A stretch of 64,000 bases of DNA. Source: Promethearchaeia archaeon. GTDB lineage: Archaea > Asgardarchaeota > Lokiarchaeia > Sigyniarchaeales > SOKP01. Position 1 is the stretch's first letter, and each line of letters begins with the position of its first letter. The notes beneath the pieces were generated by a model, which was given only the letters and a program-made list of their open reading frames with translations, ran no database searches and was not told the DNA's origin. The DNA is taken from NCBI GenBank assembly GCA_029856105.1, contig JAHQWH010000193.1, positions 32,001 to 96,000 on the forward strand. Reading direction: 5' to 3'. Shown one piece after another: positions 19,497 to 19,849 of this stretch. The translations under genes and the position numbers were made by a program.

Positions 19497-19633
19497 GATA
19501 TAAAATAAATCCCCATCCTAAAATTGAATAAGTAAATTCACTAAAAGATATTAATTTTCTACTTTATAGGTTATAAAAAAGAATGTAAGTAAAAAAGTTG
19601 AATTTATTAATTATAAGAGGGCTCGGAGGGGGA

Positions 19634-19663
19634 TTTTCATACTGCTGATAAATTCAACAATAT
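19634..19663 (-). other. tRNA-His intron 3 (position 59/60, 30 nt)
   Basis: Strict BHB: T-stem, central helix TTCA/TGAA, bulges AT|A and AA|T, inner stem TATTGTTGA/TCAGCAGTA. Confidence 0.85.
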
Positions 19664-19676
19664 ATTGAACCCCCCT

Positions 19677-19707
19677 TTCCCCAATACAAGAGAATTCCCT
19701 TGTATTT
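19677..19707 (-). other. tRNA-His intron 2 (position 45/46, 31 nt)
   Basis: Central helix CCCT/GGGG, bulges AG|A and AA|A, inner hairpin AATACAAGGG/CTCTTGTATT. Confidence 0.8.
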
Positions 19708-19720
19708 CTAGGGATTCACA

Positions 19721-19750
19721 GTGGGGATTCTCGAAAGAACCTCAAGATTT
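19721..19750 (-). other. tRNA-His intron 1 (position 32/33, 30 nt)
   Basis: Central helix GGGG/CCCC, 3-nt bulges AC|A and AC|T, inner hairpin TCTTGAG/TTCGAGA. Confidence 0.8.
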
Positions 19751-19802
19751 GTCCCCAATACTAACCACTATACGACCCGAGCCATGTTTTTTTTTAATTA
19801 AG

Positions 19803-19810: not shown

Positions 19811-19849
19811 TTTAATCTTTCTTTCTAAAAAAATTTGTCCTTTGTTAAT

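Follow-up and report, generated by a model that had tools for sequence, protein, structure and literature searches.

The minus-strand element at positions 19783 to 19620 of the window, the 64,000-nucleotide stretch of DNA analysed here, is very likely a working gene for tRNA-His(GUG) in a Loki-type Asgard archaeon. We put the probability of this reading at about 93%, taking in that it is the sole tRNA-His gene found and that its precursor is matured by the EndA/RtcB pathway. The precursor element spans 164 nt and is divided into four exons (33, 13, 13 and 14 nt) by three introns (30, 31 and 30 nt). In the order of the transcript, the parts are:

19751 to 19783, minus strand: exon 1, 33 nt, G-1 to C32, with the 5' strand of the acceptor stem, the D-arm and the 5' strand of the anticodon stem
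19721 to 19750, minus strand: intron 1, 30 nt, at tRNA position 32/33
19708 to 19720, minus strand: exon 2, 13 nt, U33 to G45, with the anticodon GUG and the 3' strand of the anticodon stem
19677 to 19707, minus strand: intron 2, 31 nt, at tRNA position 45/46
19664 to 19676, minus strand: exon 3, 13 nt, A46 to U59, with the variable region, the 5' strand of the T-stem and part of the T-loop
19634 to 19663, minus strand: intron 3, 30 nt, at tRNA position 59/60 in the T-loop
19620 to 19633, minus strand: exon 4, 14 nt, U60 to C73, with the 3' strand of the T-stem, the 3' strand of the acceptor stem and the discriminator

The coordinates, the strand, the insert sizes of 30, 31 and 30 nt and the junctions at 32/33, 45/46 and 59/60 are exactly those claimed in an earlier sequence-only reading of this DNA. 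The 73-nt cloverleaf expected after removal of the inserts was likewise recovered, as ARAGORN calls the joined exons tRNA-His(gtg) with a regular cloverleaf. The 73-mer has an acceptor stem of 7 bp, a D-stem of 4 bp, an anticodon stem of 5 bp (6 bp in the ARAGORN drawing) with a loop of 7 nt, a variable region of 4 nt and a T-stem composed of G-C pairs only. The conserved tRNA nucleotides U8, A14, G18-G19, U33, U54-U55-C56 and A58 are all readable. The D-stem is weak, with two G-U pairs, and is identical in the orthologues fetched. An encoded G-1 (19783) precedes G1 and faces the discriminator C73 (19620), and the anticodon reads GTG. G-1 opposite C73 combined with a GUG anticodon is the identity of histidine tRNAs, and the locus carries both. 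CCA is not encoded at the 3' end of exon 4. The gene sits in a 353-bp gap between two minus-strand open reading frames.

Upstream of the gene, an A3-T7-AGAAA-like motif lies on the minus strand at 19821 to 19836, 38-53 nt ahead of G-1. An A-rich motif with a T7 run recurs at a similar upstream distance in nearly all orthologous tRNA-His genes, and its holders are metagenome-assembled genomes (MAGs) labelled Promethearchaeota, Hodarchaeota, Hermodarchaeota and Thorarchaeota. From general knowledge of archaeal promoters we take the motif to be a putative BRE/TATA promoter, in which case the 5' leader of the transcript would be roughly 15-20 nt long.

The gene had been expected to escape standard scans, and two standard gene finders do miss it. 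ARAGORN detected no tRNA in the raw 64-kb window, Rfam returned nothing on raw DNA at its gathering thresholds, and no tRNA match appeared when the 361 bases around the element were compared with Rfam at E = 10. The cut-off of Rfam RF00005 is 29 bits, and natural intron-free orthologues, which differ from the 73-mer by 5-8 nt, score 55.4-59.1 bits. The assembly is a MAG of 238 contigs with 32% G+C and is 92% complete, which leaves room for a second tRNA-His on unassembled DNA. ARAGORN with introns allowed reported 22 tRNAs in the whole assembly, none of which is a tRNA-His. Infernal reported 20 matches above the cut-off and 9 weak ones, with no other His-like locus among them. The four exons map to this locus only in the assembly (blastn-short). 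The question whether another tRNA-His exists, raised along with the initial claim, can therefore be answered for the 92%-complete assembly, in which neither ARAGORN, Infernal and BLAST nor the census of bulge-helix-bulge (BHB) introns described below found a second one.

All three introns can be folded into BHB motifs. In this geometry, the central helix joins the four nucleotides of exon that precede the 5' bulge to the four of intron that precede the 3' bulge, and cuts were placed after the second nucleotide of each 3-nt bulge. The motifs are as follows:

Intron 1 (32/33): central helix GGGG/CCCC (G27-G30), 4/4 paired; bulges ACA and ACT; inner helix with 8 of 9 pairs; outer helix of 1 bp
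Intron 2 (45/46): central helix CCCU/GGGG (C40-U43), 4/4 paired; bulges AGA and AAA; inner helix with 9 of 9 pairs, 10 contiguous; outer helix of 1 bp
Intron 3 (59/60): central helix UUCA/UGAA (U54-A57), 4/4 paired; bulges AUA and AAU; inner helix with 9 of 9 pairs; outer helix of 6 bp

The sequence-only reading had described a 4-bp central helix, 3-nt bulges and a cut after the second bulge nucleotide, and this holds for all three motifs. Its remark that two of the three lack a good outer helix stands as well, given a single outer pair at introns 1 and 2 against six at intron 3. The outer helix of intron 3 corresponds to the T-stem plus one pair, and the 59/60 intron alone has the flanking helices of the strict hBHBh' class. 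Intron 3 thus belongs to the strict hBHBh' motifs, whereas the other two are of the relaxed HBh' kind. Being without an outer helix, introns 1 and 2 would depend on an enzyme of relaxed specificity. Each of these two introns also pairs with one strand of the anticodon stem, so that formation of the mature stem is precluded as long as both motifs are folded. Folded without constraints, the precursor consists of the acceptor stem and three arms, one per intron, with an energy of -69.8 kcal/mol (z = -6.56), and none of 200 shuffled sequences was as stable. Judged by eye, no sequence likeness that would point to transposition between sites was seen among the three introns.

The placement of the cuts has to be weighed against a real gene with one or more shifted junctions, for example intron 1 at 30/31 or 31/32, or with introns removed by something other than EndA. 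The two ends of intron 1 share the dinucleotide AC, and those of intron 2 share an A, so the DNA alone permits shifted cuts with the same product, and the relaxed motifs of these two introns add to the ambiguity. Such product-preserving shifts, however, retain merely 1-3 of the 4 central pairs, and only cuts at 32/33 and 45/46 combine a 4/4 central helix with 3-nt bulges. In all three introns, the junctions that restore the cloverleaf coincide with this geometry, and most orthologous introns scored at 32/33 and 45/46 share it. We consider shifted junctions or removal by another enzyme very improbable.

Orthologues of the gene are widespread among related archaea. A DNA search of 40 relatives located the locus in 17 of the 24 congeners searched. 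Exon 1 with two degenerate positions served as a motif for further orthologues and matched exactly in 28 further Asgard MAG contigs, titled Promethearchaeota, Promethearchaeia, Hodarchaeota, Hermodarchaeota, Thorarchaeota or 'uncultured archaeon'. The flanks are syntenic and share 94-95% identity with the window at two loci (L002 and L049), 89-92% at a third (L003) and 66-76% in most other congeners compared. Orthologous introns were set by spliced alignment with refinement by BHB geometry, and counts were sorted by gene length; the alignment-derived 45/46 boundary was mis-set for some orthologues. Among 36 distinct orthologues, 3 have no intron, 9 have one, 14 have two and 10 have three. The sites used are 15/16, 22/23, 32/33, 45/46, 58/59 and 59/60. 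The starts and ends of all 36 fit an encoded pair of G-1 and C73, and exon sequences, stems and these ends are kept in the Asgard orthologues fetched. Intron length varies little whatever the insertion site, with 42 of 75 orthologous introns measuring 30 nt and 17 measuring 31 nt. The first nucleotide of both bulges is A in most orthologous introns (L001-L050).

The syntenic orthologues probably settle the junctions, as far as comparison of gene sequences can. Three loci (L002, L044 and L049) contain the same three introns as the window. L002 departs from the window by three differences, located in the loop of intron 1 and in a bulge and the loop of intron 3. L003 contains a D-loop intron and the 32/33 intron only, and its spliced product is identical to the predicted 73-mer. 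Since L003 is uninterrupted at 45/46 and 59/60, both junctions can be read directly in DNA. Intron 3 is absent, with the predicted junction intact, in L003-L015. Five loci (L013, L023, L033, L038 and L043) are free of introns altogether and show 5-8 differences from the predicted product, most of which affect both partners of pairs in the acceptor and T stems. The T-loop intron sits at 58/59 rather than 59/60 in L031, L039, L040, L046 and L050, from MAGs titled Hermodarchaeota, Thorarchaeota, Promethearchaeota or Promethearchaeia. This suggests either an independent gain or an intron that slid.

The intron helices also show covariation. For the 32/33 intron, 19 distinct orthologous sequences were aligned and pairs were counted for the BHB structure. 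Of all cells, 90% are paired, versus 43-55% with slid partners. Changes on both sides occur in 7 of 8 pairs of the inner helix. The covariation score was reached by none of 500 shuffles, a count that is not to be read as a probability because the rows are related. The slid controls retain this relatedness, yet they fall far below the pairing of the 32/33 intron. The MAFFT alignment of the 45/46 intron mixes at least two helix registers, and single compensatory pairs are cited there in place of a covariation count. One of them is found at L049, a close relative, where G-C replaces an A-U pair in the inner helix of intron 2.

These observations bear on whether the locus might be a decaying tRNA-His pseudogene that retained insertions, with a working tRNA-His encoded elsewhere on unassembled DNA. 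The MAG being only 92% complete leaves some room for this, and so do the tRNA counts, as much of the tRNA set stays unaccounted for by the 22 ARAGORN tRNAs and the 20 Infernal matches above the cut-off. The closest relatives and the metagenomes, however, have identical exons, and variation falls in the flanks and introns. Differences among orthologues in the stems are compensatory, and the intron helices covary. In syntenic relatives the same locus is a tRNA-His gene, in some of them free of introns, and the assembly contains no other His-like sequence. Decay of the gene is hence very unlikely, and a functional tRNA-His gene remains the preferred reading.

Further tRNA genes of the genome are hidden in a similar way. 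A scan of the genome for BHB motifs and nothing else yielded 419,000 candidates, among which lengths near 30 nt were not enriched. The motif alone is thus swamped in a genome of 32% G+C, so the census was anchored on other tRNA features, namely acceptor-stem pairs, U8, A14 and the T-arm. Removable BHB candidates were then enumerated and the resulting products judged by ARAGORN. The census covers introns with a 4/4 central helix outside the acceptor stem; its set is incomplete, with many isoacceptors missing from it, and Infernal adds a few loci. It returned 26 loci in the real genome, the tRNA-His included, and 0 in the reversed genome. At least three more tRNA genes of the genome are hidden likewise by introns. 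The loci from the census are:

G000:C191:99855-99957, plus strand: tRNA-Lys(UUU), interrupted once, in the T-loop at 59/60, by an hBHBh' intron of 30 nt
G000:C2:64509-64627, plus strand: tRNA-Leu(UAA) with a 35-nt D-loop intron
G000:C74:14201-14333, plus strand: Val(CAC) candidate with at least two introns, one of them in the T-loop
G000:C121:3051-3180, minus strand: multi-intron tRNA candidate with a D-loop intron and an anticodon-loop intron, the anticodon call being uncertain

The tRNA-Lys(UUU) intron occupies the same site as intron 3 of the tRNA-His and is unrelated to it in sequence. Infernal gives only a sub-threshold partial match at this locus. The tRNA-Leu(UAA) locus reaches 24 bits in Infernal, which is below the cut-off, and is missed by ARAGORN. 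The odd variable region of the Val(CAC) candidate may hide a third intron. The prediction that tRNAs seemingly missing from such genomes are concealed by introns is therefore borne out qualitatively, with at least three further cases and no full count.

Metagenome contigs from other studies include the complete gene. The three-intron gene is spanned by single contigs in three other studies (X3 record 11, X4 record 19 and X9 record 21), whose differences from the window fall in the 3' flank. Run X12 shows a change in the loop of intron 1. The idea that the three-intron arrangement is an assembly chimera or a chance cloverleaf has only its source, a metagenome bin, in its favour, and we deem it refuted by the single spanning contigs from independent runs (X3, X4 and X9). 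The same architecture at three further MAG loci (L002, L044 and L049) and 0 tRNA calls in the reversed genome versus 26 in the real one also speak against it. Among the DNA contigs compared with the locus, no joints were listed, and one loose contig end was informative. A minor X3 contig from a low-depth relative in a subsurface metagenome, matching window positions 19664-19725, has changes inside intron 2. In this contig, exon 3 (U59) is joined directly to exon-4 sequence at the predicted place and intron 3 is absent. Intron states thus differ among co-occurring populations.

The genome contains candidates for the splicing enzymes. Exactly two matches to the EndA catalytic domain (PF01974 together with an N-terminal PF02778) were found, in open frames of 200 and 201-202 amino acids. 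The protein at G000:C107 is closest to the catalytic subunit of the Aeropyrum pernix enzyme (3P1Z_B, E = 3e-34) and aligns with it end to end. There is no gap through the Crenarchaea-specific loop (CSL), where K-P-R aligns with K44-P45-R46, and the equivalent of His133 is kept. The Tyr and Lys also kept in this protein presumably complete the catalytic triad. The protein at G000:C12 has a Ser at the position of the catalytic His of Methanocaldococcus jannaschii EndA. It is read as a putative structural beta subunit. From the alignments, the genome probably encodes EndA of the broad-specificity type, an alpha/beta pair in which alpha keeps the CSL lysine. This agrees with the expectation that an endonuclease of relaxed specificity is present. 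An RtcB match lies at G000:C191:86017-87324 on the plus strand, in an open frame of 545 amino acids against a profile of 426 positions. The surplus length may be a domain, an intein or an upstream extension.

Work on the A. pernix EndA has shown that the enzyme owes its broad substrate specificity to the CSL and requires K44 for activity, and it cuts D-loop BHB introns and relaxed motifs (Hirata et al. 2011, PMC3241643). The protein at G000:C107 resembles this enzyme (3P1Z, 3AJV) in the CSL and in its equivalents of K44/R46 and His133. In contrast to A. pernix, the putative Asgard beta subunit (G000:C12) is more similar in sequence to the EndA of M. jannaschii than to crenarchaeal beta subunits.

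Given how the locus is built, how it is conserved and covaries among relatives, and that the genome encodes the enzymes, we infer transcription, cleavage and ligation in the following order. Transcription would yield a precursor of some 164 nt, extended by a leader and a trailer, and this precursor would fold into the acceptor stem and three arms, each offering a bulge-helix-bulge. An EndA of (alpha-beta)2 type, with the proteins at G000:C107 (alpha) and G000:C12 (beta) as candidates, would cut after the second bulge nucleotide and release the introns at 32/33, 45/46 and 59/60. RtcB (G000:C191) would ligate the four exons. RNase P, 3' trimming and CCA addition would then produce the 73-nt tRNA with its encoded G-1 paired to C73.

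Multi-intron tRNAs have precedents in two groups of archaea. The sequence-only reading held that triple-intron tRNAs are described mainly in Thermoproteales, a view that is out of date given the published Asgard cases (PMC5829648, PMC11291895, 10.64898/2026.10.13.758758). Kaneta et al. 2018 (PMC5829648) included a Lokiarchaeota MAG among the four Asgard genomes whose tRNA genes they predicted, and noted that incomplete Asgard tRNA sets point to unidentified disrupted tRNA genes. The same study reported that Asgard archaea have an (alpha-beta)2 EndA with an L1 insert, and the two-subunit EndA with a loop lysine found here matches that enzyme. Valentin-Alvarado et al. 2024 (PMC11291895) found introns in 92-95% of the tRNA genes of three complete Asgard genomes, with several introns in over half of tRNA genes. 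According to the preprint by Goswami et al. of October 2026 (10.64898/2026.10.13.758758), 25-30% of the intervening sequences in Asgard tRNA genes escape tRNAscan-SE. The preprint also describes up to five intervening sequences per gene and repeated gains, with splicing not yet demonstrated.

These Asgard reports (PMC11291895, 10.64898/2026.10.13.758758, PMC5829648) describe several short BHB-type introns per tRNA gene at non-canonical positions including the T-arm, as is seen here. They share with this locus the failure of standard annotators, an (alpha-beta)2 EndA with an L1/CSL insert, and repeated intron gains and losses among relatives. Atabeyarchaeia, Freyarchaeia and Jordiarchaeia are the focus of the 2024 and 2026 papers, whereas the gene described here belongs to a Loki-type genus (MAGs titled Promethearchaeota). 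In the accessible text of the 2026 preprint, Loki-type lineages and tRNA-His are not mentioned. At the locus described here, ARAGORN and Rfam overlook the gene as a whole and not just an intron of it.

In Thermoproteales, multiple-intron tRNA genes found with SPLITS (cited in the Asgard literature as Sugahara 2008 and Fujishima 2010) have up to three protein-spliced introns each. Like those considered here, these introns occur at sites such as the D-loop, the variable region and the T-loop and form BHB motifs of either the strict or the relaxed kind. They depend on a heterotetrameric EndA of broad specificity, the type predicted here as well. Thermoproteales belong to another phylum, whereas the organisms considered here are mesophilic, live in marine sediment and have 32% G+C. 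The introns of the Asgard tRNA-His orthologues are also strikingly uniform, with 59 of 75 being 30 or 31 nt long.

Multi-intron and hidden Asgard tRNA genes having already been published, the general inference drawn from the locus is not new. The tRNA-His locus is a clean example of a published Asgard phenomenon and not a new kind of system. Its value lies in a clean worked example and an annotation fix, rather than in the discovery of a principle. Given the raw DNA of this Loki-type genome, ARAGORN and Rfam/Infernal do not see the tRNA needed for histidine codons. Where tRNAs seem to be missing from such MAGs, the gaps are hence at least partly annotation artefacts.

Two points are of some further interest, namely that introns turn over fast at one syntenic locus inside a genus, and that each strand of the anticodon stem pairs with a different intron. 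Within one Loki-type genus, the number of introns at this locus ranges from 0 to 3, with at least five sites in use. Nearly all of them follow a common hairpin design of 30-31 nt. At the locus with flanks of about 90% identity (L003), the 45/46 and 59/60 introns are swapped for a D-loop intron. Insertion and deletion of introns might still be active in these organisms, for example with reverse splicing by EndA and RtcB as a first step and reverse transcription or recombination as the second, a tentative idea that we consider rather unlikely. Slow decay of ancient introns is the alternative. With 36 distinct alleles carrying 0-3 introns, the locus is useful for the study of BHB intron gain and loss and of the substrate range of Asgard EndA. 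If turnover is indeed active, the locus would provide a natural time series for catching intron gain and loss.
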